From positions 1 to 32,032 of the forward strand of contig DAVZKM010000001.1 in NCBI GenBank assembly GCA_052272245.1: a stretch of 32,032 nt of DNA, in the 5' to 3' direction. Below the pieces are notes generated by a model. That model did not search any database. It saw only the letters and a program-made list of their open reading frames with translations, and was not told the DNA's origin. This stretch comes from Eubacterium sp. GTDB lineage: Bacteria > Bacillota > Clostridia > Oscillospirales > Acutalibacteraceae. Every line of letters starts with the position of its first letter. Positions within the stretch are counted from its first letter, which is position 1. Shown piece after piece: positions 1-23,212 of the stretch. The translations under genes were made by a program, and so were the position numbers.

Positions 1-41
1 GGTATAAATGTAACCAATGACGTTAAAATTAAAATAATACA
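1..41. repeat. 41-bp exact direct repeat, copy 1 (other copy 1696-1736)
   Basis: GGTATAAATGTAACCAATGACGTTAAAATTAAAATAATACA read at both positions; probably continues left of the window. Confidence 0.9.
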
Positions 42-64
42 TATAATATTTTTTATTTTTTCAT
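1..64 (-). pseudogene. 5' end of signal-peptide micro-ORF P4 (frameshifted, truncated by window edge)
   Basis: ATG at 64 followed by A6; adding one base gives MKK(I)KNIICIILILTSLVTFIP, matching P1 (1512-1759). Bases 1-41 are identical to 1696-1736. Confidence 0.6.
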
Positions 65-114
65 TTCTTATCTCTTTCTATTTTTGTAGCACTTTTATAA
101 AATAATTTTACAAA

Positions 115-465
115 TTAAAATTTATCAACAATGTAAACAAAAAGATAAGCCAATGTTTCAGTAGTCCACGGATAAGTAATTCTTAACAAAAAAAGTATTA
201 AAAGGGTAAAAAAATTGATTTTCTTTTTTAAAATCATAAATATATTCAGTATGATATATACAGCAGGAAATGCAACTGAATAAATCCATATAAATTCTGT
301 AGGACTATTTGAAAACCAAAAGAAAATTCCCTTATAAGTAACAGCAGAATAAAACTCAGCAATAAAAAGAACTATAGAGAGAACATATAATATTATTTTT
401 ATTACACCCAGACCTTTTAAATATTCAAATACCCCTTTGAAATAAGTTTTAATTTTCTGTTTCAT
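115..465 (-). CDS. Small multi-TM membrane protein, array paralog A2 (putative immunity/receptor protein)
   Basis: ORF track 115..471; ATG at 465 (MKQKIK). About 3-4 hydrophobic segments; body aligns by eye with 1811-2152 (WIY..FP..YI..NI, KIN, LR.TY). Confidence 0.8.
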   Translation of the reverse strand: MKQKIKTYFKGVFEYLKGLGVIKIILYVLSIVLFIAEFYSAVTYKGIFFWFSNSPTEFIWIYSVAFPAVYIILNIFMILKKKINFFTLLILFLLRITYPWTTETLAYLFVYIVDKF

Positions 466-494
466 ACACACTACCTAAAACATTAAACTCGCCT
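414..494. repeat. 81-bp direct repeat copy a (peptide/membrane-gene junction)
   Basis: 76/81 identical to 940-1020 by manual comparison; partial third copy at 1465-1521. Confidence 0.9.
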
Positions 495-589
495 AAAATA
501 TTCCCCATTGCATAAGAACAAACGGGAAATTCAAATAATAATATTACTATTATCAAAAATACAGTTAATGTTGATTTGGATTTTTTCAA
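449..589 (-). CDS. 46-aa secreted micro-protein P3: MKKSKSTLTVFLIIVILLFEFPVCSYA-MGNILGEFNVLGSVYETEN
   Basis: GGAGG RBS then TTG at 589 and TAA at 449-451. Basic N-region, hydrophobic core and SYA cleavage-like site; overlaps the start of A2. Below the ORF track length cutoff. Confidence 0.65.
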   Translation of the reverse strand: MKKSKSTLTVFLIIVILLFEFPVCSYAMGNILGEFNVLGSVYETEN

Positions 590-613
590 AATTACTTCCT
601 CCATATATTAAAA

Positions 614-991
614 TCACACGCCGTTTACTATCATAGGAAACCAAGCGATAAAAAACATTACAATAGGATGCAATGATAGTAGCAATGCAACGATAAAACA
701 ATTAAAATTATTAAATTTTTTTGAAAATAATGTTATTAAAAAATATGTTGAAGATATAAAGGTACTGTAATACATCCAATAATCTAATAAAAAATCCGAA
801 ACATCAAGATGAAATATATCTTTTATCGGAGATAATCCATCAAAAGTAAGACCTAAAAAAGCACCTCCAGAATATATCAACTCACATATACTTAAAAGCA
901 TAAAAAATATTAACAGTAATTTTTTAAACCAATGTAATTCTTTTAAATATTCAAACAATCCTTTAAAATAAGTTTTAATTTTCTGTTTCAT
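614..991 (-). CDS. Small multi-TM membrane protein, array paralog B2
   Basis: ORF track 614..1000; ATG at 991. Clear paralog of 1132-1515 (LLDY..YYS, TYFLIT, FN.FNC, HPIV..FI.WFPMI). Confidence 0.8.
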   Translation of the reverse strand: MKQKIKTYFKGLFEYLKELHWFKKLLLIFFMLLSICELIYSGGAFLGLTFDGLSPIKDIFHLDVSDFLLDYWMYYSTFISSTYFLITLFSKKFNNFNCFIVALLLSLHPIVMFFIAWFPMIVNGV

Positions 992-1020
992 ACACACCAC
1001 CTAAAACATTAAACTCGCCT
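940..1020. repeat. 81-bp direct repeat copy b
   Basis: Near-identical to 414-494. Confidence 0.9.
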
Positions 1021-1115
1021 GTGATACTACCCATAGCAACAGCGTTGAAAGGTATGGATATAAACATCGTGGTTAAAATTAAGAATGAGCTGATTAGTGA
1101 TTTAAACTTACTGAT
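975..1115 (-). CDS. 46-aa secreted micro-protein P2 with non-canonical or mutated ATC start: (I)SKFKSLISSFLILTTMFISIPFNAVA-MGSITGEFNVLGGVYETEN
   Basis: AGGAGG RBS 7 nt upstream of ATC at 1115; TAA at 975-977. Same length and register as P3, with an AVA signal-peptidase-like site. Confidence 0.55.
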   Translation of the reverse strand: MSKFKSLISSFLILTTMFISIPFNAVAMGSITGEFNVLGGVYETEN

Positions 1116-1131
1116 ACGCTTTCCTCCTTTA

Positions 1132-1515
1132 TCAACCAAAAATATCTTCCATTATCATCGGAAACCAGCCAATAAAAAGTGAAACTATCGGGTGCATTGA
1201 CAATAATAAAGCAATAATAATACAATTAAAATAATTAAAATTTTTCAGTAATATTGTGATTAAAAAATATGTAAATGAAACAAATGCACTATAATACACC
1301 CGGTAATCAAGCAAATAATCGAATATATCTGTAGAATAAATTCTATTAAAAGGTGAATAATCATTAGAATAAAGACCTAATAATGCACTGATAGAACACA
1401 CTAATTCAATCAAGTTAAGCAATATAAAGAAAAATAATAAAATTTTTTTTGGCATGCTTAAATTTTTTAAATATTCAAACAATCCTTTAAAATAAGTTTT
1501 TATTTTTTGTTTCAT
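1132..1515 (-). CDS. Small multi-TM membrane protein, array paralog B1
   Basis: ORF track 1132..1521; AAGGAG RBS and ATG at 1515 overlapping the TGA of P1 (ATGA). Confidence 0.8.
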   Translation of the reverse strand: MKQKIKTYFKGLFEYLKNLSMPKKILLFFFILLNLIELVCSISALLGLYSNDYSPFNRIYSTDIFDYLLDYRVYYSAFVSFTYFLITILLKNFNYFNCIIIALLLSMHPIVSLFIGWFPMIMEDIFG

Positions 1516-1521
1516 ACACAC
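1465..1521. repeat. 57-bp direct repeat copy c
   Basis: 55/57 identical to 941-997. Confidence 0.85.
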
Positions 1522-1759
1522 TCCTTAGAATACGAAGTATTACCGTCAACATAAAATGTAGCAGTAAAGTTTTGTTTATCATAATTTATTGTTTTTATTA
1601 CTAAGTGAATAGTATAACCGCTTTTCTTGCGTGTATATTCGCAACCAATAACTCTAAATTCACCTGTTGCGTCACCCATAACGTAGCTTGCTGTAGGTAT
1701 AAATGTAACCAATGACGTTAAAATTAAAATAATACAAATAACATATTTGATTTTTTCAT
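1512..1759 (-). pseudogene. Signal-peptide protein P1 (~82 aa if repaired), -1 frameshift just after the start codon
   Basis: AGGTGA RBS and ATG at 1759 followed by A6, one base out of frame with ...KYVICIILILTSLVTFIPTASYVMGDATGEFRVIGCEY... (ORF track 1512..1712). Pro22, Met28, Gly29 and GEF fall in register with P2 and P3. Confidence 0.6.
1696..1736. repeat. 41-bp exact direct repeat, copy 2
   Basis: Identical to 1-41. Confidence 0.9.
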
Positions 1760-1810
1760 GATTTCACCTTTAAGCTGTATTTTTCACAAACACTTTAAGT
1801 ATTTTATAAT

Positions 1811-2152
1811 CTAAAGTCTATTAAAAATATCAATAAATGTATATACTAAAAACATAGCAATAGGTTGATAAGTCACTCTTAAAATCATAAAAAACAACAA
1901 TGTTATATAATTGATTTTATTAAAATATAGTAAAACAATATTTATAACTATGTATATAAGCGGAAAAAAAGTATAATAAATCCAGTATAAATCCAACGGA
2001 TTATCCAACAAAAAATCCCACGCATAAACACCCTCATCACAGATTACATAAATCATTTCAGATAAAAATAATATAGTAGATATTATATATATTATTTTTT
2101 TTGTTTTACTTAATTGGCTAAAATTCATAATTACCCTTTTTGTTACAATCAT
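1811..2152 (-). CDS. Small multi-TM membrane protein, array paralog A1 (first gene of the array)
   Basis: ORF track 1811..2197; AGGAG RBS favours ATG at 2152. Homologous to 115-465; shares the TM1 Glu and DFLLD..W.YY with the B paralogs. Confidence 0.8.
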   Translation of the reverse strand: MIVTKRVIMNFSQLSKTKKIIYIISTILFLSEMIYVICDEGVYAWDFLLDNPLDLYWIYYTFFPLIYIVINIVLLYFNKINYITLLFFMILRVTYQPIAMFLVYTFIDIFNRL

Positions 2153-2236
2153 TACTACTACTCCTAATATCAATACACCATTCTTATAAATTATCAATCT
2201 ATGATTCCTAACTTAAGGTGATTTATTCCAATTATA

Positions 2237-2265
2237 TTTATAACATATTTACATTTTGCTTGCAA
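2237..2265 (-). promoter_or_regulatory. Candidate sigmaA promoter for the left array
   Basis: TTGCAA-17 bp-TATAAA with TG extended -10 on the minus strand; AT-rich context lowers specificity. Confidence 0.45.
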
Positions 2266-2476
2266 GAGCATTTATATATTATATAATATAACACCTAATT
2301 TTAAGAACGTGAACTTCTCCGTTATCGAAAGAATAATAATAAAGAAATATAATATAAATAAGTCCGAAAGAAACACGCCGAAATGCGACTTTCTAATTCT
2401 TCACATAATAACGTTTAAAATATTGCAGATTTTTGACTTGTAAAAAAAGAATTTGAAAAAGAAAAATCCCAAATAG

Positions 2477-2514: not shown

Positions 2515-3882
2515 TTATTTAACCTTAACCTTTTTAACCGTTGACCACTTGCCATAATATTTAGTGCCGTTTGAATGAGTTTTATATGCTCTTACACGCA
2601 CATAATATGTTTTTCTGCTTTTAGATGTAGAAATTGTAACACTTGTTTTCTTAGTAGTCTTTGTTAAATAGTTTTTCTTAAAGTTTTTACTTGTTGACCA
2701 TTGGTATTGATAGCCTGTACCGGTGGTCTTTTTCCATTTAAATGTAATTTTCCTTTTCTTAGTGCTTTTTGCAAGCTTTGTTTGCACCTTGCGAGGATTT
2801 GTTACAACCTTATACGGTTCGCTTCTTGCGCCTTCATTACCGCCAACTACGGCAGTAACCTTAAATCTGAAATAAGAACCTTCGGGCAGCCCTCTAACCT
2901 TAAATGTATTCACATTACCGGCAGTTGTGCCGACCTTAACGTACTTATCTTTCTTTGAATCATACTTATAAATATTATAATATTCAGCATAGGTTTGCGA
3001 TGTCCAAGAGAAAGTCAGAGTTGTATTAGTTTTTGCTTTAAGCTTAACACCTGTTACCTTTTTTGCTGTAGGCTGAGTTACATTAGGTTTAACCGATACG
3101 CCAGGAACAGCCGGCTGTGCCCCTTGATACCAGATATTCATATCAACTCTGCCCGAAATGCCGTTTACTCTGCCATCTGAGGTATACTGCCAATATTCGT
3201 AATCGCCCGGATAATCGGTTGAAGTATTATAATGAGCAAGCCAAATTTTAGCAATACTTGAAATTTGAGAAGCATCCACCCTATTTTTAAGAAAACTGTA
3301 ATTCGCATAAAGGCAAGGAGTATATCCCATTTGAGAAACTCTGTTCAAAAAAGCAAGGCTGTTAGCAGTCATTTGAGCCTTAGAAAGGTTAGCACTGTCA
3401 AGCCTGCCGTCTTCTCCGACTCCCGCAAACTCATAATCGTAAACAACCGGCAGTGTGATGTTATAGCTTCCTATAACATCAAGAAGTTTATTTGCTTCTT
3501 GTAAAGCCTCGTCCTCATTTAATGCCTGAGAATACCAATAAACTCCGACCTGCAAGCCTGCGGCAAGTGCATTGGTAATATTTTCCTGATAATAAGGGTC
3601 ATAATTGAGCGATAATTTTTTCTTAGTATATCCCGTGTAGCCAACTCTTACATAAACGAAGTCAATTCCGTCAGCTTTAACCTTGTTAAAGTCAACAGTT
3701 TTGTTATGCTCTGACACGTCAATACCTACAACCTTATTAAGTGTATCAAATTTAGTATTATGTGTATAAGTTTTGTTATCATATTTGCTGTCAAATTTAG
3801 TTGATGCAAAGGCAACAGATGTTGAAGCAAAAACTATAATTACAGCAAGAAAAACGCTGAGTATCTTAATTAATTTCTTCAT
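2515..3882 (-). CDS. Secreted GH25 muramidase (lysozyme) with C-terminal fibronectin type III domains
   Basis: Signal peptide, GIDVSEHN, YDYE catalytic motif, WQYTSDGRVNGISGRVDMN, and Lys-rich Fn3-like repeats (YYVRVRAY..YGKWS). Confidence 0.9.
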   Translation of the reverse strand: MKKLIKILSVFLAVIIVFASTSVAFASTKFDSKYDNKTYTHNTKFDTLNKVVGIDVSEHNKTVDFNKVKADGIDFVYVRVGYTGYTKKKLSLNYDPYYQENITNALAAGLQVGVYWYSQALNEDEALQEANKLLDVIGSYNITLPVVYDYEFAGVGEDGRLDSANLSKAQMTANSLAFLNRVSQMGYTPCLYANYSFLKNRVDASQISSIAKIWLAHYNTSTDYPGDYEYWQYTSDGRVNGISGRVDMNIWYQGAQPAVPGVSVKPNVTQPTAKKVTGVKLKAKTNTTLTFSWTSQTYAEYYNIYKYDSKKDKYVKVGTTAGNVNTFKVRGLPEGSYFRFKVTAVVGGNEGARSEPYKVVTNPRKVQTKLAKSTKKRKITFKWKKTTGTGYQYQWSTSKNFKKNYLTKTTKKTSVTISTSKSRKTYYVRVRAYKTHSNGTKYYGKWSTVKKVKVK

Positions 3883-5420: not shown

Positions 5421-7243
5421 AAAATAAAAATGTTTTACTGATGGGCAATCCCAATGTGGGCAAAAGCACAGTTTTTAATGAGCTTACAGGAATGCACCAG
5501 CACACAGGCAATTGGACAGGCAAAACCGTTGACTCAACAGCAGGCAAATTTTATTATAAATATAATAATTATGAGTTGATAGATTTGCCCGGTACATACA
5601 GCCTCATACCGTCAAGTGAGGAAGAAAGGGTTGCCGGCGAATATCTTTTAAAAGAAAAATATGACTGCGTTGTAGTTGTTATTGATTCCACGATGCTTCA
5701 ACGAAACCTAATGTTATTTTTTCAAATATTTGAGATAACAAATAAGCTTGTTGTAATGCTCAATCTATGCGACGAGGCTAAAAAAAGAAACATAGAAATT
5801 GACAAAGAAATTTTGCAAAATCTGCTTGGTGTGCCTGTAATCAAAGCAACGGCAAGAAGCGGAAAAGGAATAAACGAATTACTTGAACAGATACATCTCA
5901 TTTCAACAAACAGTGAGGATTATTACGCTAAAACAGATTACGATTTAACCAATTTAGATATTGAAAACATAGCATACAAAGCTGAATTTGTTGCAAGAAA
6001 AGCACTCAAAAGAGCACCGTCAAAAAGAGAAAAAAGAGATGAAATGCTTGATAAAATACTGCTTGGAAAATACACCTCTATTCCTATCATGCTGATAATG
6101 TTTAGCTTAATATTATGGATAACAATTAAAGGCTCAAACTATCCAAGTGAATTTCTTTCAAAAATATTTAATGCTTTTGAAGCCTTTTTATCGAGCAAAA
6201 TGGCTCAAGCAGGAGTATCTCCGATACTTATAAGCCTGCTAATTGACGGAATGCTCAAGGTGCTTTTGTGGGTAATCGCCGTTATGTTGCCGCCTATGGC
6301 TATATTTTTTCCTCTTTTTGCAATACTTGAGGATTTCGGAATACTTCCGAGATTTGCATTTAACCTTGACCGTCCCTTTGAAAAATGTAATGCCTGCGGT
6401 AAGCAAGCGCTCACAACGTGTATGGGGCTTGGATGCAATGCAGTAGGAGTAACAGGAGCAAGAATAATAGATTCACCGAGAGAAAGAGCAATCGCTGTAA
6501 TTACTAATTCTCTCACCCCCTGCAACGGAAGATTTCCTTTTTTAATTGCAGTTATATCAATATTTTTAGCTAAAAATTCAATAATTGCAAGCCTTATACT
6601 TTTAGGCTTTATTATTATATCAATTGTGTGCACTATGACAAGCTCAAAGGTGCTCAGCCATACAGTGCTCAAAGGGAAAAGCAGTTCACTTATTTTTGAA
6701 CTGCCTAAATATAAAGTACCTGATTTCAAAAATGTAATTATATCAACAATAAGGGGTAAAATTTTACTTGTCCTTTTCAGAGCTGTTGCAGTTGCCGTTC
6801 CTGCCGGACTGATAATTTGGGCACTTGCGAATATAAGCGTTCACAATACATCACTTTTAAATATTATCTCAGCCAAACTTAACCCTATAGGAAAATTCAT
6901 AGGACTTGACGGAGTTATGTTAATGGCTTTTATACTCGGCTTACCGGCTAATGAAATTGTGCTTCCTATTGCATTAATGGCATATCTTTCAAGCGGAGTA
7001 TTAAGTGATTATTCATCAATCGAATGTCTAAAAGATATACTTGTTACAAACGGCTGGACAATAAAAACAGCACTTTGTGCCTGCATATTCAGTATGTTTC
7101 ACTTTCCCTGCGCAACAACATTATTTACAGTCTTTAAAGAAACAAAAAGCATTAAATACACCCTGCTTTCAATCATAACTCCGCTTGCAAACGGAATAAT
7201 AATCTGCTGTGTAATTAATGCTTTGTTCAATATATTTACTTAA
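5417..7243 (+). CDS. feoB: Ferrous iron transport protein B
   Basis: GNPNVGKS, GNWTGKTV, DLPGTYS, NLCD GTPase motifs followed by a Gate-type membrane domain. Confidence 0.93.
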   Translation: MKNKNVLLMGNPNVGKSTVFNELTGMHQHTGNWTGKTVDSTAGKFYYKYNNYELIDLPGTYSLIPSSEEERVAGEYLLKEKYDCVVVVIDSTMLQRNLMLFFQIFEITNKLVVMLNLCDEAKKRNIEIDKEILQNLLGVPVIKATARSGKGINELLEQIHLISTNSEDYYAKTDYDLTNLDIENIAYKAEFVARKALKRAPSKREKRDEMLDKILLGKYTSIPIMLIMFSLILWITIKGSNYPSEFLSKIFNAFEAFLSSKMAQAGVSPILISLLIDGMLKVLLWVIAVMLPPMAIFFPLFAILEDFGILPRFAFNLDRPFEKCNACGKQALTTCMGLGCNAVGVTGARIIDSPRERAIAVITNSLTPCNGRFPFLIAVISIFLAKNSIIASLILLGFIIISIVCTMTSSKVLSHTVLKGKSSSLIFELPKYKVPDFKNVIISTIRGKILLVLFRAVAVAVPAGLIIWALANISVHNTSLLNIISAKLNPIGKFIGLDGVMLMAFILGLPANEIVLPIALMAYLSSGVLSDYSSIECLKDILVTNGWTIKTALCACIFSMFHFPCATTLFTVFKETKSIKYTLLSIITPLANGIIICCVINALFNIFT

Positions 7244-8613
7244 TCTATAAATTCAGGCACTTCTAATACCGCATCGCTGTCGGGAAAACCGCTGTCATAA
7301 AGTATCCCTTTAATAACACTATCAATCTCATCACCTTTAAAGATTTTATGAAAAATCGGTGATAATCTGTCATATATTGCCATAAAGGAATCATATTCGG
7401 CAGTACCGGGAGCATAAGGCTCATCGCCCGCATATATATTACGCACTAACGTGATAATAAAATCAGCCAGGCGGACATTATACATTCTCGGCGCAATTTT
7501 ACTTTTACACATAAGGACTGTGGCCGCCTTTTTAAACGTCAAGCTGTCAAGCAGCTTTCCTAAAATATGAATAGGCACTTTTATCTTTTCCGCCTGCTCC
7601 TTGTGCAGACTGAAGCACTCTGCGACCTCAACAAATCTGTTAATATCATTAGCCGCAGAATCAATGATATCATTAAGCATAAAATCAAAATGGTCACGAC
7701 TGTAGGTCATATATGATTTTGAGCCGAAATCATAATGAATATTTTTTGGGTGGAGAGTTTTAACCGTCAGTTTTTCATCATCAAGTTCCATTTTACGTAT
7801 AGGGCTTGGGTAACCGATCAAGGAAGCTGTATTAACATCATAAATTCGATTACCCTTGACGGTATCAAAAAAGTTGATGTTTTGCATATGAGTATGCCCG
7901 GTAAATACAAAATGAATATCATTATCAGCAAAAAGCGCAGCTATTTTTTCATTGTCGCCGAGCATTTGATTTTTGCAATAAAACTCATAAACAGGGCTTG
8001 GAGCAAGCAAGGGGTGATGAGTAATTGCAATCATTTTCTGCCCTACTTTTCTGCAATCAGCTATTTGCTCTTTAATCCAATTAAGTTGTTCCTCAAAATA
8101 GCCGTGAAAGCCATCCTCCCAGCCTATACCATCATCATTAAGTGCAAGAAGCCTTGTTTTTTCGTCAAGCTGAGAAACGTACGAAAACGTTTGTGGGTGC
8201 TTGGCTATTGCATCGTTAAAGCCAAAATCGCCGTAAATTTCCTCAAGCTCCTGCCTCGTGCAACCTTCAACAACATATTCGCCCTTTTCATTTGAATAAC
8301 CCTTCGGCTCGGGGTGCAAGTCATGAGTACCTGTGATTAAGTAGACTCTTTTGCCGGCTTGGGTAAGCTAATGCAGTTTCTCGGCAAGTGAAATATGCCC
8401 TGCTTTTTCGCCGTCGCAAACATTATCGCCCGTAATTAAGATAATTTCGATTTCCTTATCATCAAGAAACATTTGAATTGTTGCGTCAAGTATAGCTTCA
8501 CTTTCAGCAATGCACTTTTGGTCATACATTGCACGATTAATCCACTCTTTGCCATGTGCATTTAAAAGTTTTGCGGGATAATAATGCAAATCGGTAATTT
8601 GATAAAATTTCAT
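7240..8613 (-). pseudogene. Calcineurin-like metallophosphoesterase interrupted by a single in-frame TAG (8368-8370)
   Basis: ORFs 8368..8613 and 7240..8319 share a frame. Read-through gives ...EKLH*LTQAGKRVYLITGTHDLHP..., completing the motifs TDLH, TGD, GTHD, THHP, GHTH. Confidence 0.85.
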
Positions 8614-12336: not shown

Positions 12337-13575
12337 TTAATCAAAATATTCTTTCAAGTTATCAAAAATATCCTTTTCAATCTTAATGATATTTTCTTTT
12401 ATTTCACAATCAAGATTAATTTCATCAACAAGTTTAGGATTTCTGACCTCTATTGAAGTATCACTAAATCTTATTATATTTTGAACACCGCCGAGGGCAG
12501 ATACCGTATTTTTAAGGTTGTTGGGAATATAGATATTTAAAAGTGAGCTGATACCGTATTTTTCATAAAAATACTTAGTTACAAAATATCCGATAGCGGT
12601 AAAAACAATACCAAGAGTTACAAGATAAATATACTTGTCGGCATTAATAAATATTTCAATTATACCGCCTCCGAAGGAAAAACCGACAGAAATTTTAACA
12701 ATTGAAGCGCAAAAATAACCAAGGGAAGAAATAACACAAAGGCTTAAAAATAAATATGGGCTTTCCAAAAGAATAAAAAACATAAAAATAGTGACATTAC
12801 CACAAAGAATTGAAGAAGCAACAATTATGCAAAACACTGCTTTTTCAATGCCTTTTAATTCTTTGATTAGCGACGTAAACACACCGACAATCAAAAATAT
12901 TAAATAGGAATGACCGGAAAGATAGGTAATAACCGATTGAGATTTGATATTATTTTTAAAAATATTAATTGCACCGCTGATAATTGAATTATTATTGATA
13001 ATCTGTGTTGAACCGAAGCTTTTATAATAAAACATATTTTCAAAGCTTGAAAAATCAAGCGGAGAAAGAAACGTATTAACAAAACCGAACATAGCTGATG
13101 AAATATTCCCTTTATTTGAAACAAATGCGGAAACACCCATAATAAAATTATTATAAATGTCATACAAATAAGTGCACAAAACAGCAAAAATAAGCGTTGA
13201 CGACAAAAGCAATAACGAAGCGGTAACAAAGTTCAGATTTTTGTAACAATAGTAAGCTAAAAGAGAGATTAAAACAGCAAAAAAATATGATTTAGACTGC
13301 GTAAATACAGAGTAAAAAATAAATGTGCAAAATAAAGTAAACAATGCTTTAAAGGTTTTCCTGCCGTTAATCAAATAAAATGTTGTAAAAAAAGAAATGG
13401 CAAGAGGTACAATAAATTCAAGACAGGAGGATAGATTTTTAAATGAAATAATTTCGTTGTTCGTTTTAAACGCAAGAAAATCAAAAAATGCTTTAAACGC
13501 AAAAAAGATTGAAGTTATTCCCAAAGAAATGAGCATTGCATTTTTAAGCTTATTAAAATAATTATAAATGTTCAT
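12337..13575 (-). CDS. Highly divergent PTS glucose-family EIIC(B)-like membrane protein lacking catalytic motifs
   Basis: Colinear similarity to EIICB (FGFVNTFLSP, FGS, GFSFGGGIIE, LGGVQNI..VRNPKLVDE) but no GLHH, GITEP or CxTRLR. Start probably ATG 13575. Confidence 0.7.
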   Translation of the reverse strand: MNIYNYFNKLKNAMLISLGITSIFFAFKAFFDFLAFKTNNEIISFKNLSSCLEFIVPLAISFFTTFYLINGRKTFKALFTLFCTFIFYSVFTQSKSYFFAVLISLLAYYCYKNLNFVTASLLLLSSTLIFAVLCTYLYDIYNNFIMGVSAFVSNKGNISSAMFGFVNTFLSPLDFSSFENMFYYKSFGSTQIINNNSIISGAINIFKNNIKSQSVITYLSGHSYLIFLIVGVFTSLIKELKGIEKAVFCIIVASSILCGNVTIFMFFILLESPYLFLSLCVISSLGYFCASIVKISVGFSFGGGIIEIFINADKYIYLVTLGIVFTAIGYFVTKYFYEKYGISSLLNIYIPNNLKNTVSALGGVQNIIRFSDTSIEVRNPKLVDEINLDCEIKENIIKIEKDIFDNLKEYFD

Positions 13576-13598
13576 ACATCTATTATTACCAAAATATG

Positions 13599-13639
13599 AA
13601 AAAAATAAACCGCAGCAAGAATAAATTCCTGCTCCGGTT
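13599..13639 (-). terminator. Intrinsic terminator after radC
   Basis: AACCGGAGCAGGAAT/ATTCTTGCTGCGGTT imperfect stem followed by TATTTTTTT. Confidence 0.65.
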
Positions 13640-13643
13640 AATT

Positions 13644-14477
13644 TTACCAATCATCCTGCATAAAACTCATACGTAGTGAGAAAGGTTGATCATTTCCTAT
13701 AATAATATGGTCGATAAAATTAATATCAACATTTTTAAGCACATTGTCAATAGAAACAGAAAAATTCAAGTCTGCGTCTGACGCTTTGCTTGAACCATTT
13801 GGGTGATTATGCGTAAAAAGCACACCGGAAGCCTTGTCTATTATTGCAGCTTCAAGAATTTCACGAGTATTCGACGGTGCAGTATTGGCATTACCCTCTC
13901 CTATCAAATGGATATTAATAATTGATCCGTCGTTATTGAGCGTAATCATATATAACTTTTCGACTTTTTCATATTTAAACAAATTACTGCAATAAGCTAT
14001 TGCTTCTGATGAACAATTCAAATTATCAACATTCTTATTTCTGTTATTTGCTACTCTTTTATTAAGTTCGACAACCATTTTAATACCTATAGCGGCAGAT
14101 TGACCGATACCGTTTACCGTCATAAGCTGATTAGCATCTGCATTCAGGACTCCCTCAAGCGAGCCAAAGCGATTTATCAACGCATATGCAAGTTCCTTAA
14201 CATCTTTTTGAGGAATTATAATTGATAAAAATAGTTCAAGCAAATTATGGTCGGGAGAATTTTGCATTCCTCCGGCAAGATAAACTTCCCTCATTCTCTG
14301 CCTATGACCGTTTCTGCTTAGCTTAGGGTTGTTTGATTCAACAGAAAGAGCGTTAAAATCCTTTGCCGGGAAATTTTTATCAAGCGAATTTTGATAATAC
14401 TTATTCGTAAATTTATCTTTATCGTTATAATCAGACAATGCACTGCCGAAATCAAATTTCGACATATCAAATTTCAT
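13644..14477 (-). CDS. radC: RadC family JAB-domain protein
   Basis: GHRQRMR, HhH region (VNGIG), HNHPNG..S.AD and DHIIIG; start probably ATG 14477 (track 14501). Confidence 0.9.
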   Translation of the reverse strand: MKFDMSKFDFGSALSDYNDKDKFTNKYYQNSLDKNFPAKDFNALSVESNNPKLSRNGHRQRMREVYLAGGMQNSPDHNLLELFLSIIIPQKDVKELAYALINRFGSLEGVLNADANQLMTVNGIGQSAAIGIKMVVELNKRVANNRNKNVDNLNCSSEAIAYCSNLFKYEKVEKLYMITLNNDGSIINIHLIGEGNANTAPSNTREILEAAIIDKASGVLFTHNHPNGSSKASDADLNFSVSIDNVLKNVDINFIDHIIIGNDQPFSLRMSFMQDDW

Positions 14478-19914: not shown

Positions 19915-22344
19915 TTATTTCAAAAGCGATTGTGCTTTTTCTTTCGAAAGATACTTGGTTATATAAGTATTGTTTTTGAATTTTACAAGGACAATATAGC
20001 CGTCCTTTTTGCAAAGCGAGTAAATTGATGATTGATTAAATATTTCCTGTGCCTTTTCACCATCGGTAATTTTCTTACCGTTATAGGTTTTAAGCACATC
20101 CGTCTCTTTAAGCTCGCTGCCCTGATATTCATGATAACTTTCAGGCGTTGCCGTATCGCTTTCAAAAGTGGAAAGCGCAGTAAGTGATGACTCGCTTGAA
20201 AGCCTTTTATCAAGAGCAGTAACGGTTACATACTCTATCTCACCGGACTTTGACAAATCAGCAAATGCCGTAAATTTTTTAATAGATTTAAGATAATTAA
20301 CGGTATTAACCATATCATCCCAAATATAATATGTGGCGTCATTCATATAATCGATATCATCATAATTTTGAACGCTATCATCATATGTGAAATTGATTGC
20401 GCCCAAAGGCGATTTGCCGCAGGTTAAAAGCTTTTTGTAACCTACTTTCTCAATATCTTTTAGTATCGCATCACGAAGTGCCGGCGTATTTTCAATCTTA
20501 GTTTTGGTGACGGCATCATTTGAAACTATATATGCATCACCCAAAGTAAGTGCATTTTTCACATTACTCTCATTTGCAAAATAAGCGAAGTAATATTGGG
20601 AATCATCAGAATTAAAGGTGCCGCTTGATTTTTCATCGGCTCTCTTTGATGACATTAAGAATTCAAGTTCTTTTTGATATTCTTTGCTTTGAGTCAATTC
20701 AATAATATCAAGTGAAACGTCACTGTTCGTGCAAGTATATTCACGATTAACTACCTTGCCGTTTTTAAGCAAATACTTTATCTTAACAGTAACATATGGT
20801 TCATTTCTTTTAGCAATTCTGTTTTTAAAAGAATAATTCTGTATTTTCTCAATTTTATCTATTGAGTCTTTTGTATTGAATTTACCAAGATATGCGCCCG
20901 ATAACTCATACGTACCGTAATAAAGCTGATCGGTACCTGCAGTAAGTGAACCGTCAGCAAACTGATTAGTTGACATAACACCCGAAGCGTCTATATATTC
21001 GCTGTTTATTGTTGCATAGTCAATATCCTTAATATCGGGGCAATATGTTGAATAGCCGAAGCCGCCGGAAATACAAATAACGCTTATAACCAAAATGGCA
21101 ATTGACGACACGCCTACCGGAATTACAAGCTTAATGCCGTGCTTGATATTTCTGCGTGAAATTGACATAAATACGAAATAAGCAATAATACCGCAAATCA
21201 AACCAACAAAAATATCAAGTGTTTTTGACTGAATAACATCAAAATCAGACAATAACGGCATAAAGAATGTTGCAACAAACACCGAAAATTCAAGGCTTAC
21301 AAAAACCGTTACAAAAAGGTTTGAAGAATGAAGCGCCGTATTTTCAAGCTTACGTTTATTAAGAAGCTTATTAGAAATAAATATAAACAATACGGATAAT
21401 ACAAGCCAGATAAGAATAGGTAAAATATAATTCATTCCTGCTTTTTCAAATCCTACATTTCTGCTTGCATTATTATAATAAAAATCGTTATCTATTCCGA
21501 TATCGCTTGTAGTGTCTCTCAAACAATTGAAATACATATTATTACGAACGTTATTTGAACCGAGCGCCGTACCGAAAATAAGCGGATTAATCACCGAAAG
21601 CTTAGACCAAAGAGTATCTACCGTCACCGTCAAAGAAGAACTTCCAAGCGGCATAACACTACTGTTGGTTTGCGCATATCCTCTAAGGAAATTTTTGAAA
21701 AGATATTCTATCGAAACAATGTAAAACATTGGCGACCAAATAAGACCGGCGCCGAAGAAAAGGCTTTCGATTACAGTATAACAAGCCATCATCGCAATAC
21801 TCATAAGCGAAAATCCTGCAAGCATATACGTAAAATGCTCTAAAAACAGGAAAAATCCTTGATGAATAATAAAATCCGCATGGCCTAAATATCTTATATT
21901 AATTATAATATCAATCAGCAACGGCACAGCCGTTGTTAATATCATTATAATAATCGACGAGAGCACTCTGTTTTTAAAATATGTCTTTCTGTCAATTCCG
22001 CACGAGAAAAAGAAATTAACATTGTTTTTCCTCATAATCGGAAAGAATATGCAAAATGCAAAAAGCACACCGATTATTATCGCATATATTCCATAAAACA
22101 TATAGTTAGTCGACATATTTGCGAAAAGAGCACATGCAAGCTGTTTTCTTATTGAAGCTATATTTTCTGCTCTTAAGCTAAGCGAATAAGTGCCTGCAGA
22201 TGAAATTGTTGTTACAGGAATAACAATAAAATATATAACCGAGAATAAAAGTGAAACAATGCCCGGAGCAATTAATCTAACAAACGAACGTTTAAAATCA
22301 TAACTTGCCGAATGCTTATCAACAGAAGATTTTGGAGATGTCAT
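19915..22344 (-). CDS. Large ABC transporter permease with extracellular C-terminal domain
   Basis: Many TM segments in the N-terminal half; GGAGG RBS before ATG 22344; overlaps the ATPase gene. Confidence 0.8.
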   Translation of the reverse strand: MTSPKSSVDKHSASYDFKRSFVRLIAPGIVSLLFSVIYFIVIPVTTISSAGTYSLSLRAENIASIRKQLACALFANMSTNYMFYGIYAIIIGVLFAFCIFFPIMRKNNVNFFFSCGIDRKTYFKNRVLSSIIIMILTTAVPLLIDIIINIRYLGHADFIIHQGFFLFLEHFTYMLAGFSLMSIAMMACYTVIESLFFGAGLIWSPMFYIVSIEYLFKNFLRGYAQTNSSVMPLGSSSLTVTVDTLWSKLSVINPLIFGTALGSNNVRNNMYFNCLRDTTSDIGIDNDFYYNNASRNVGFEKAGMNYILPILIWLVLSVLFIFISNKLLNKRKLENTALHSSNLFVTVFVSLEFSVFVATFFMPLLSDFDVIQSKTLDIFVGLICGIIAYFVFMSISRRNIKHGIKLVIPVGVSSIAILVISVICISGGFGYSTYCPDIKDIDYATINSEYIDASGVMSTNQFADGSLTAGTDQLYYGTYELSGAYLGKFNTKDSIDKIEKIQNYSFKNRIAKRNEPYVTVKIKYLLKNGKVVNREYTCTNSDVSLDIIELTQSKEYQKELEFLMSSKRADEKSSGTFNSDDSQYYFAYFANESNVKNALTLGDAYIVSNDAVTKTKIENTPALRDAILKDIEKVGYKKLLTCGKSPLGAINFTYDDSVQNYDDIDYMNDATYYIWDDMVNTVNYLKSIKKFTAFADLSKSGEIEYVTVTALDKRLSSESSLTALSTFESDTATPESYHEYQGSELKETDVLKTYNGKKITDGEKAQEIFNQSSIYSLCKKDGYIVLVKFKNNTYITKYLSKEKAQSLLK

Positions 22345-23212
22345 AATTCTTGTCCTCCATTTCATTTAAAAATACTTCTTCAAGAGAAAGAGTAACGCTG
22401 TCCATATGAACAGGACAAAGGCAAGCAAGAGCTCCATTGTCAAAGCTTGACGGCACAATGATTGTTGCAAGCTTATTATCAATAGTAATACCTTTATTTT
22501 CAATTCCGTCAAAAATTGATTTGTCAATATCCCTATCAAAAATAAGGCGATATTTAACATAAGCCGAGCTTGCGTCATCAACAGAAACATTCATTGCAAG
22601 TTTTTTGCCATTAATGAGTGCAACGTGGTCGCACAAATCGGCAATTTCCTGCAAATTATGACTGCTCATAATCATTGAACAGCCGGTTTCAGCCATATAT
22701 TCAATAAAAATTTTCTTACAAAGATTTCTTTTTAGCGGGTCAATTCCGTCAAAAACCTCATCAAGAAGCATATATTTAGGCATTGTTGACATAGCCAAAA
22801 CTACTTCAGCCTGCCTTTGCATACCCTTAGAAAAAGAGCCTATATTCTTTTTAGGGTCAAGACCCATTGCCTCCGTCATATTTTTAAACACTTTTGAATT
22901 AAAATTCGGAAAATAGCCTTTATAAATTTTTCCCATTTTTTCAAGGCTTGCACCCTTTACAAAATAAACTTCATCGGGCACATAAAGAAGAGATGAACGC
23001 ACCTTGCCGTTATCATAAACATTTTCCGAGTCAAAAAGCACCTCGCCGCTTTCCGGCTTTAGTATTCCTGCCGCAGTTTTTAAAAGTGTGGTTTTGCCTG
23101 CACCGTTATAGCCGACAAGACCATAAATCGAAGACTCCTCAACTTTGAAGCTTATATCCTCAACGGCAATATAATCACCGTATTTTTTAGTCACATTTTT
23201 AATTTCAATCAT
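22319..23212 (-). CDS. ABC transporter ATP-binding protein (YtrB-like)
   Basis: GYNGAGKTT, FSKGMQRQ, LLDEVFDGID, SSH. Confidence 0.93.
   Translation of the reverse strand: MIEIKNVTKKYGDYIAVEDISFKVEESSIYGLVGYNGAGKTTLLKTAAGILKPESGEVLFDSENVYDNGKVRSSLLYVPDEVYFVKGASLEKMGKIYKGYFPNFNSKVFKNMTEAMGLDPKKNIGSFSKGMQRQAEVVLAMSTMPKYMLLDEVFDGIDPLKRNLCKKIFIEYMAETGCSMIMSSHNLQEIADLCDHVALINGKKLAMNVSVDDASSAYVKYRLIFDRDIDKSIFDGIENKGITIDNKLATIIVPSSFDNGALACLCPVHMDSVTLSLEEVFLNEMEDKNYDISKIFC

Follow-up and report, generated by a model that had tools for sequence, protein, structure and literature searches.

The first 2,265 nucleotides of the window (the whole stretch of 32,032 nucleotides analysed here, the opening 32 kb of contig C1 in a Eubacterium sp. 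genome, below called G000) carry on the minus strand an alternating array of small membrane genes and short signal-peptide open reading frames (ORFs). The order is A1-P1-B1-P2-B2-P3-A2-P4, with P4 running off the edge at base 1, as an earlier sequence-only reading of this DNA had described it and as the ORFs confirm. A1, B1, B2 and A2 belong to one small membrane gene family, M, and P1 to P4 are the short ORFs. By sequence comparison with relatives, we identify P1 to P4 as the 5' stubs of deleted copies of a large lipase gene, L, and not as peptide genes. The locus would be the remnant of a strain-variable cassette locus, in which one cassette consists of an M gene with L immediately downstream; four divergent M genes would stand in tandem after every L body had been removed, leaving P1 to P4. 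That the array is such a remnant, with M genes that are possibly protective, has in our judgment slightly better than an even chance of being right.

Short ORFs P1 to P4 and the 5' end of the lipase gene

L encodes a Sec-secreted product of ~1,240 amino acids with a signal peptide, an N-domain, a class-3 lipase carrying the GHSRG motif, leucine-rich repeats (LRRs) and a dockerin. An intact copy of 1,245 amino acids, in which Pfam recognizes Lipase_3 (1.9e-13), LRR_4, the BspA-type LRR_5 and Dockerin_1, lies behind an A1 ortholog at locus L035. There are two close full-length L clusters, P0067 (the L protein of L035; 516 members) and P0068 (1,237 amino acids; 287 members), the latter with Lipase_3, LRR and dockerin domains and with its called start inside the signal peptide. 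The sequence-only reading had offered two models, one in which the short ORFs are conserved as such in relatives and one in which the same N-terminus heads long secreted proteins. We found the second situation: the same N-terminus opens proteins of 1,237 to 1,245 amino acids, namely those of P0068 and L035.

P1 (1512..1759, minus strand) is an L stub of ~80 codons with 85% identity to residues 2-81 of a 263-amino-acid L ORF at locus L005 (E 6.3e-41); it leaves the L sequence after ...NTSYS and ends in the ribosome-binding site (RBS) and ATG of B1. P4 (1..64, minus strand) is the stub of the L gene belonging to A2. In the DNA alignment, P1 and its upstream DNA correspond to the 5' end of an L035-type L, and P4 and its upstream DNA to that of an L005-type L. 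The intact L genes of L035 and L005 have the start with a run of A7, whereas P1 and P4 have A6. Consequently, the ATG of P1 (1759-1757) is one base out of frame with its signal peptide, and that of P4 (64-62) is out of frame as well; the earlier reading had passed through a frameshift. An extra A at 1750 is present in contigs from the sequencing runs X2 and X6. Altogether 16 runs contain part of the stretch, each with a share of at most 0.19, and no RNA run is among those listed.

P2 (975..1139, minus strand) is the stub of a P0068-type allele, consisting of 37 L codons followed by the RBS and first codons of B2 in another frame. The beginning of P0068, ...MFISIPFNAVAMGSITGEFNVLGGVY, is identical to P2 over the 26 residues that both hold, up to GGVY; beyond this point P0068 continues VREKKNYSITL, while P2 reads ETEN and stops. 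The Shine-Dalgarno (SD) sequence of P2, AAAGGAGG, is followed by ATC (1112) and not by ATG, and this ATC is the only SD-served start. X2 and X3 contigs covering B1-P2 leave the window at base 979, and in our own translation their overhang reads KNYSITLTI, as P0068 does. In those samples the sequence behind B1 therefore passes the P2 break point like P0068, which is consistent with an intact L. P3 (449..604, minus strand) appears to be the stub of a further allele with the same break point as P2. It has a TTG (589) behind GGAGGA and an ATG (604) inside the SD, and its match to the L005 ORF covers residues 1-45 at 40% identity (E 3.6e-5); an intact L allele with the P3 signal peptide was not found. 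The SD motifs noted earlier for P1 to P3 are followed by a frameshifted ATG, an ATC and a TTG, respectively.

By comparing the stubs with relatives, we found three cases in which the same M type is followed by an L that extends beyond the stub point: at full length behind A1, to residue 263 behind A2 and with a P0068-type continuation behind B1. What remains of each L in the window is the RBS, the signal peptide and 0-55 further codons, giving stubs of 22-80 codons. For P4, the end is seen on another contig of the same genome, C268, whose bases 1-50 equal window bases 50..1 and are followed by 10 more L bases (...TAS) and then by unrelated DNA. Because the sequence diverges there, P4 is itself a stub ending at a deletion junction. 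The earlier statement that it runs off the edge is right in that P4 reaches base 1, but the L sequence stops after ...FIPTAS and passes into the reverse complement of an AraC-type ORF. This truncated helix-turn-helix ORF, whose tail (1..105, plus strand) runs into the reverse complement of P4, marks the deletion junction at the array's far end. It is 5'-open in the window, an 82-amino-acid ORF on C268 runs into it (HTH_18 at E 5.4e-4, below the Pfam cut-off), and a CorA gene lies beyond it on C268.

A repeat collapse or chimera in a metagenome-assembled genome (MAG) could in principle have produced the array or the C268 junction. The assembly has 280 contigs (94.8% complete), the contig ends inside a 60-nucleotide repeat formed by the P1 and P4 signal-peptide regions (95% identical), and no sample contig spans the whole 2.5 kb. 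However, the M proteins are 62-66% different and are thus no collapsed copies, separate and independent contigs cover B2-P3, P2-B1 and A1-P1 at 90-99% identity, proteins of the P0039 type (B2) and the P0002 type (B1) occur on many contigs, and C268 overlaps the window end by 50 exact bases. It seems that an assembly artefact is very improbable.

The likeness between P2 and P3 has its own origin. A block of ~80 nucleotides, from GGCGAGTTTAATG to about the 17th codon of M, is 97% identical between the P2-B2 and P3-A2 units, with flanks of only 37-60% identity. This 5' box lies at 940..1020 in the B2 unit (minus strand; stub end, RBS and the first ~17 codons, MKQKIKTYFKGLFEYLK) and at 414..494 in the A2 unit (minus strand), where it includes the 3' half of P3. 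A shorter box, from the RBS onward, lies at 1464..1522 in the B1 unit (minus strand), whose first codons are 93-100% identical to those of the B2 unit; the match of an X3 contig to the window stops within it, at 1506. The block is conserved at the nucleotide level, with synonymous sites fixed too, and its last 17 nucleotides are the start of the next M gene. The VYETEN tail of P2 and P3 results when the RBS and the start of the next M gene (ATG AAA CAG AAA, for MKQKIK) are translated in a different frame. P2 and P3 end at the 9-nucleotide string GTGTGTATG, which encodes G-V-Y in L and recurs in M genes as spacer plus ATG, for comparison at L005 and at the P1/B1 junction. This microhomology, as the site of a deletion or recombination, accounts for the VYETEN tail and for the identical length of 46 codons, which had been noted before and holds from ATC 1112 and TTG 589. 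RNA folding z-scores of the three boxes (0.66 for B2, -0.33 for A2, -1.70 for B1) gave no support for a structure, and an Rfam search of 1-2600 returned only the terminator hairpin of a GH25 gene, below threshold.

These features bear on the first of the two earlier models, in which P1 to P4 encode the precursors of micro-peptides that are secreted as bacteriocin or pheromone, with M as the cognate receptor or immunity protein. Class II bacteriocins and AgrD/AgrB combine leader-peptide precursors with neighbouring immunity or processing membrane proteins, and the window resembles such loci in having a ~46-amino-acid ORF with a leader beside a small membrane gene. The predicted Sec signal peptides are plausible, with an A-x-A-type site before MG; the common Pro22, Met28-Gly29 and GEF.V.G motif are present, the resemblance being far beyond chance, as the P1 match to the L005 ORF illustrates; and P2 and P3 are equally long and have 16 of 19 'mature' residues in common. 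However, the same N-termini head the 1,237- to 1,245-amino-acid L proteins, and the common 'mature' residues coincide with the 97%-identical DNA block, synonymous sites included. P1 and P4, two of the four, are frameshifted and have no in-frame ATG, and only three similar small ORFs are called among 5.8 billion proteins. Pfam gave nothing significant for the P ORFs, so that no AgrB, bacteriocin or other family matches; unlike the precursors of bacteriocin and AgrD loci, the P ORFs are truncations of a large gene. We therefore hold the micro-peptide model to be scarcely credible. The case is also a caution, since micro-ORFs with signal peptides that lie between paralogs and look conserved can be the scars of a large gene nearby, and a "conserved mature peptide" can be the next gene's RBS and first codons in another frame. 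The second earlier model, large secreted genes deleted to stubs within a library of membrane genes, stands in its anatomy for P1, P2 and P4; its 'immunity' is at present a suggestion from genomics.

Loss of the lipase gene and strain variation at the locus

A profile search with the N-domain and lipase found no match to the lipase part of L anywhere in G000; the L profile hit only P1 and an N-terminal stub on contig C93. The 1,535-amino-acid L protein of another species (locus L022; Lipase_3, LRR and choline-binding repeats) found in G000 nothing beyond the LRR and Cys-rich repeats of other proteins (residues 606-1308). Lipase_3 with its GxSxG motif is not in the window copies, which end after 22-80 codons, whereas GHSRG and the Pfam match are present in the intact relatives; the window therefore holds L gene fragments and not members of the enzyme family. 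The C93 stub belongs to what looks like a second lipase-less locus, L139. There, a 238-amino-acid N-anchored gene of a second family, Y (1417-2133), is directly followed by a 64-amino-acid ORF (2177-2371) that matches L-profile positions 3-76 (E 9.1e-4).

Contigs from other samples carry alternative joints at the locus. The array is preceded by a leader, or upstream region (2198..2471, minus strand), that is common to L005, L035 and L038, stands before the first M gene and is the probable promoter region of the array. In X1, base 2208 is joined to 991, that is, the leader to the ATG of B2, and in X3 it is joined to 1506 in B1, via 250 other bases. The leader also stands directly before B2 in P0040-type contigs, an arrangement found on 46 contigs. 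The X1, X2 and X3 contigs match the window up to 2471 and then diverge. From the alternative joints, we conclude that strains carry different M(-L) cassettes at one locus, with breaks at the leader and the M 5' box.

L is itself polymorphic and frequently broken. Its alleles are mosaics, with identities of 50-63% over residues 1-100, 31-55% over 401-550 and 90-100% over 551-1245; the variable part is the N-terminal 550 amino acids, and it is this enzymatic half that adjoins the partner gene. In L005 and L037, L is cut at the same residue (...EWEGSLPEK, 263 amino acids) by an insert that carries or abuts tRNA-Asn (1699-1839 in L005, 1657-1778 in L037), which suggests that L received an inserted element or recombined at a tRNA-Asn copy. 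L036 has a split L and the low-coverage L038 a frameshifted one, and in L042 L is cut down to 128 amino acids and fused to an M23-peptidase fragment in an M-M-L stub arrangement. In all five loci (L005, L037, L036, L038 and L042), the M gene adjoining the broken L is intact. Upstream of the A1 ortholog, at 339-620 in L035 and 3-344 in L036, lies an internal fragment of another L copy (about residues 140-250); tandem M-L units and partial L deletions have therefore occurred also in strains with an intact L.

Stubs between partner genes recur outside this genome. Locus L022 has one M gene, a stub equal to the first 24 codons of its own L, a second M gene and the intact 1,535-amino-acid L. Locus L113, from a Ruminococcaceae MAG, has the order Y1, a 79-amino-acid L stub, Y2 and a 1,319-amino-acid L. 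Among 74 L loci with a complete 5' end, an upstream N-terminal stub was found in these two, and two further matches lay downstream and were not stubs. A stub is what a tandem duplication, capture or deletion would leave if one of its break points fell just behind the partner gene and so within the L 5' end. The Y family comprises signal-anchored proteins of ~240 amino acids with a conserved FYDDYQL..I..WCTE motif, unrelated to M and with no Pfam match. An AlphaFold model of Y (pLDDT 69.7) gave a best PDB match of E 0.11, to a DUF5037 protein, which is not significant. In other Clostridia, Y stands in two or three tandem copies upstream of an L-type lipase ORF (L072, L080 and L113), making it a candidate for a second partner or immunity family.

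Such recurrence in three lineages could speak for a function of the stubs themselves, as coupling upstream ORFs for the next M gene, as signal-peptide leaders that take the mRNA to the membrane, or as small secreted decoys. P1 to P3 do overlap the next membrane gene, as stated earlier: the stop of P1 overlaps the ATG of B1 (ATGA), and P2 and P3 each overlap the next start by 17 nucleotides. The L113 stub has its own ATG, is 43% identical to the neighbouring L, is still open and likewise ends in ATGA with the next gene, and P0074 is a 46-amino-acid version with an ATG start found on nine contigs. However, two of the four window stubs are frameshifted at the start and one has ATC, the tandem M genes of L042 overlap without any stub between them, and the break points vary (24, 37, 37, ~80 and 22+ codons). 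A stub may also diverge from the neighbouring L because it originated from another allele, as for P2. We consider functional stubs improbable, and continue with P1 to P4 as remnants of L.

The M family and its possible protective role

The four M paralogs are intact minus-strand genes for proteins of about 115-127 amino acids, predicted to have three membrane helices. As the sequence-only reading had it, A and B genes are paralogous: the M proteins are 34-38% identical to A2 (B2 38%). A1 (1811..2152, minus strand) starts at ATG 2152 behind AGGAG, with the frame open from TTG 2197 and an inner ATG at 2128; its L035 ortholog (639..1022) is 90% identical, lies directly upstream of the intact L and gives a ratio of nonsynonymous to synonymous substitution rates (dN/dS) of 0.30. 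A2 (115..465, minus strand) differs by 5 residues from its ortholog in L005 (534..884; dN/dS 0.43), which is followed by the 263-amino-acid L ORF. B2 (614..991, minus strand) matches P0039 and P0040 of the protein collection. B1 (1132..1515, minus strand) is represented by 38 clusters at 93-95% identity, one of them on 997 contigs. This commonest B1-type protein, P0002, starts with MKIKIYLKDLFSYLK, and window B1 (1465-1515) carries the MKQKIKTYFKGLFEYLK box common to B2 and A2; the first 17 codons of window B1 look like the product of an exchange, either through gene conversion or through recombination.

No known family matches M, so the possibility that A and B belong to a characterised one, which had been named as an outcome that would refute the earlier models, found no support. 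Pfam returned no family at E <= 1 for three of the four window proteins and only a chance-level SECRET-domain match for B1 (E 0.83, 10 bits against a cut-off of 20.5 bits). It returned none for the L022 M genes (E <= 0.01), none among the 42 M homologs listed, and no AgrB-family match for any window M protein. An AlphaFold model (pLDDT 86.3) has three long helices (8-32, 48-68 and 74-104), from which M can with confidence be modelled as a three-helix membrane bundle. Across the alignment, the N-terminus is basic, helix 1 carries an acidic residue, a loop has KK.N and helix 3 contains a Pro, all of them conserved. Foldseek found 0 matches to the model in the PDB, and the best ESM Atlas score with B1 (0.90) was to a cluster without a name, of low recognition value and giving no lead.

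At E <= 1e-3, the family has 26 representative clusters in a set of 1.84 billion proteins, and we found matches in 19 of the 145 genomes of the genus at E <= 0.01, 15 of them at E <= 2e-4; a contig-collection search with the M alignment gave 601 pattern matches, 0 of which were confirmed. Gene orders elsewhere are Y-L in L064-type loci and M-Y-L in L013 and L076. The named records with M-L loci nearest to this one are Eubacterium sp. CAG:251 and Ruminococcaceae/Oscillospiraceae MAGs. As to M type and L type, B1 goes with P0068-type L, A1 with P0067-type L, and A2 with an L known over its first 263 residues. Literature searches turned up no account of the M family and none of a lipase that has a dockerin and a partner gene, which is not proof that none exists.

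Lipase lost and partner kept and multiplied is a pattern typical of toxin-immunity conflict. Four divergent M genes are open (dN/dS 0.30-0.43 for the A1 and A2 orthologs) in a genome that has no L; losses of L recur while M is retained, and intact L is common elsewhere, as the sizes of the two full-length clusters indicate; and partner genes form tandem arrays, M here and Y upstream of L. The locus thus has several features of a toxin-immunity array, namely tandem non-identical paralogs, strain-variable content and partners kept where L is lost or broken. Judging from genomics only, M may be a protective, immunity-type membrane partner of the lipase, a proposal we hold to be a little short of an even bet. 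M genes from several alleles would be kept and accumulated as protection against the L of neighbouring strains. Less securely, the array might have grown by capture or duplication of units made of M and an L 5' end, via the 5' box and leader region.

A different account of the same anatomy accepts the stubs as relics but takes M as an accessory or independent membrane protein, which anchors or matures L or works with Y, and the array as a neutral by-product. Neutral tandem duplication and deletion in a recombination-prone locus could build such an array, most M genes of the genus have no adjacent L and several stand with Y, the L domains are adhesin-like and enzyme-like, M and the L N-termini show no strict co-variation in the sequences compared, and M offers no structural or family lead. 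However, an accessory M should decay after the loss of L, yet the four divergent M genes are open with good RBSs although all L genes are destroyed; the dN/dS of the M orthologs is 0.30-0.43, and B1-type proteins persist at 93-95% identity, on as many as 997 contigs. We regard this account as possible but doubtful.

Several points weigh against protective M genes in a remnant locus. Of the 14 M-bearing genomes read, only 5 (G000, G015, G064, G090 and G103) have M before an L, whether intact or truncated, the others having M beside Y in several cases and alone in a few; of the 80 best L-lipase loci, 3 have an adjacent M and 11 an adjacent Y. Strict M-L co-variation is not seen in the sequences compared: A1 and A2, only 33% identical, precede L N-termini that are 84-100% identical in 50-residue windows (first 263 residues compared). 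L, with its LRRs and its dockerin or choline-binding repeats, resembles an adhesin or enzyme of the cell surface, for which neither antibacterial activity nor an antibacterial delivery domain is known, and the modelled M would have only short extracytoplasmic loops. In a genome of this completeness and contig number, an L copy may have escaped assembly. The A6 runs come from one assembly only, and the dN/dS of the P1 stub (0.27) is no different from that of intact L (0.19-0.28) and is uninformative on decay.

The closest parallel to protective M genes is found in Staphylococcus aureus, where lipase toxins of its type VII secretion system (T7SS) are reported to be neutralised by membrane-anchored immunity proteins that occur in variable multi-copy arrays and are kept after toxin loss (PMC13560087). 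As in the TslM/TilM (DUF1433) and TslA/TilA pairs described there, L is a secreted lipase with an N-terminal enzymatic domain (PMC13560087). The array is also like the immunity "rafts" reported there, in which small membrane-attached partners stand in tandem non-identical copies of strain-variable number and content, and toxin genes are often absent or frameshifted while the partners stay (PMC13560087). Unlike the S. aureus toxins, L has a Sec signal peptide, no LXG/WXG partner, a length of 1,240-1,535 amino acids and LRR with dockerin or choline-binding repeats, and its toxin role is putative. Unlike TilM and TilA, M is polytopic with three predicted helices, lies upstream of L on the same strand, and had no DUF1433 (TilM) or DUF576 (TilA) match in Pfam.

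The layout also invites comparison with polymorphic toxin loci, and we rate the locus as an array of orphan partner genes next to a secreted enzyme that is polymorphic, with a mirror-image layout. Orphan modules of contact-dependent growth inhibition (CDI) and Rhs systems are arrays of immunity genes, each with a toxin-gene fragment before it, reshuffled by recombination at conserved junctions. The window is like them in its partner array, in the gene fragment preceding each gene and in the conserved junction sequences. Unlike them, where the C-terminal toxin part is kept and the immunity gene lies downstream, the N-terminal part is kept here, a difference already remarked in the sequence-only reading, and the partner gene lies upstream of the next stub. 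TsaI proteins, which act against the T7SS-dependent, pore-forming or depolarising TspA, are polytopic membrane immunity proteins in multi-copy arrays; M resembles them as small multi-pass membrane proteins in tandem non-identical copies, and no sequence or fold relation was found.

On these parallels, M and Y might both be immunity proteins against undescribed Sec-exported, surface-held lipase toxins, and the array an acquired immunity library; we offer this only tentatively and with more doubt than confidence. The lipases would be held by dockerin or choline-binding repeats and serve contact-dependent antagonism among gut Oscillospirales, and the arrangement would be the mirror image of CDI/Rhs, with a variable N-terminal enzymatic half and the immunity gene upstream. 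The library could have been built by capturing M with the L 5' end from several allelic cassettes, via the 5' box and the 9-nucleotide microhomology. Should M or Y protect against L, Gram-positive commensals would have a Sec-dependent route of lipase antagonism at the cell surface. The lead offered here is an unannotated three-helix membrane family linked to polymorphic, surface-anchored class-3 lipases in gut Clostridia.

Flanking genes in the window

Next to the leader lies a secreted GH25 muramidase (2515-3882, minus strand) with two fibronectin-III-like domains, which ends 8 bases before the locus boundary. We rejected this gene as part of the system: the leader abuts other DNA in relatives (tRNA-Asn in L005), and other contigs diverge at 2471. 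Three minus-strand ORFs further along, 7240-8319, 12337-13650 and 19915-22365 (359, 437 and 816 amino acids), have no Pfam match at E <= 1e-5. Apart from the array, the window is ordinary chromosome, with genes for the GH25 muramidase, Fe-ADH, FeoB, MatE, fumarase and others. Within 1-2600 there is a single terminator-like site, a strong one at 2479-2510 that belongs to the GH25 gene.

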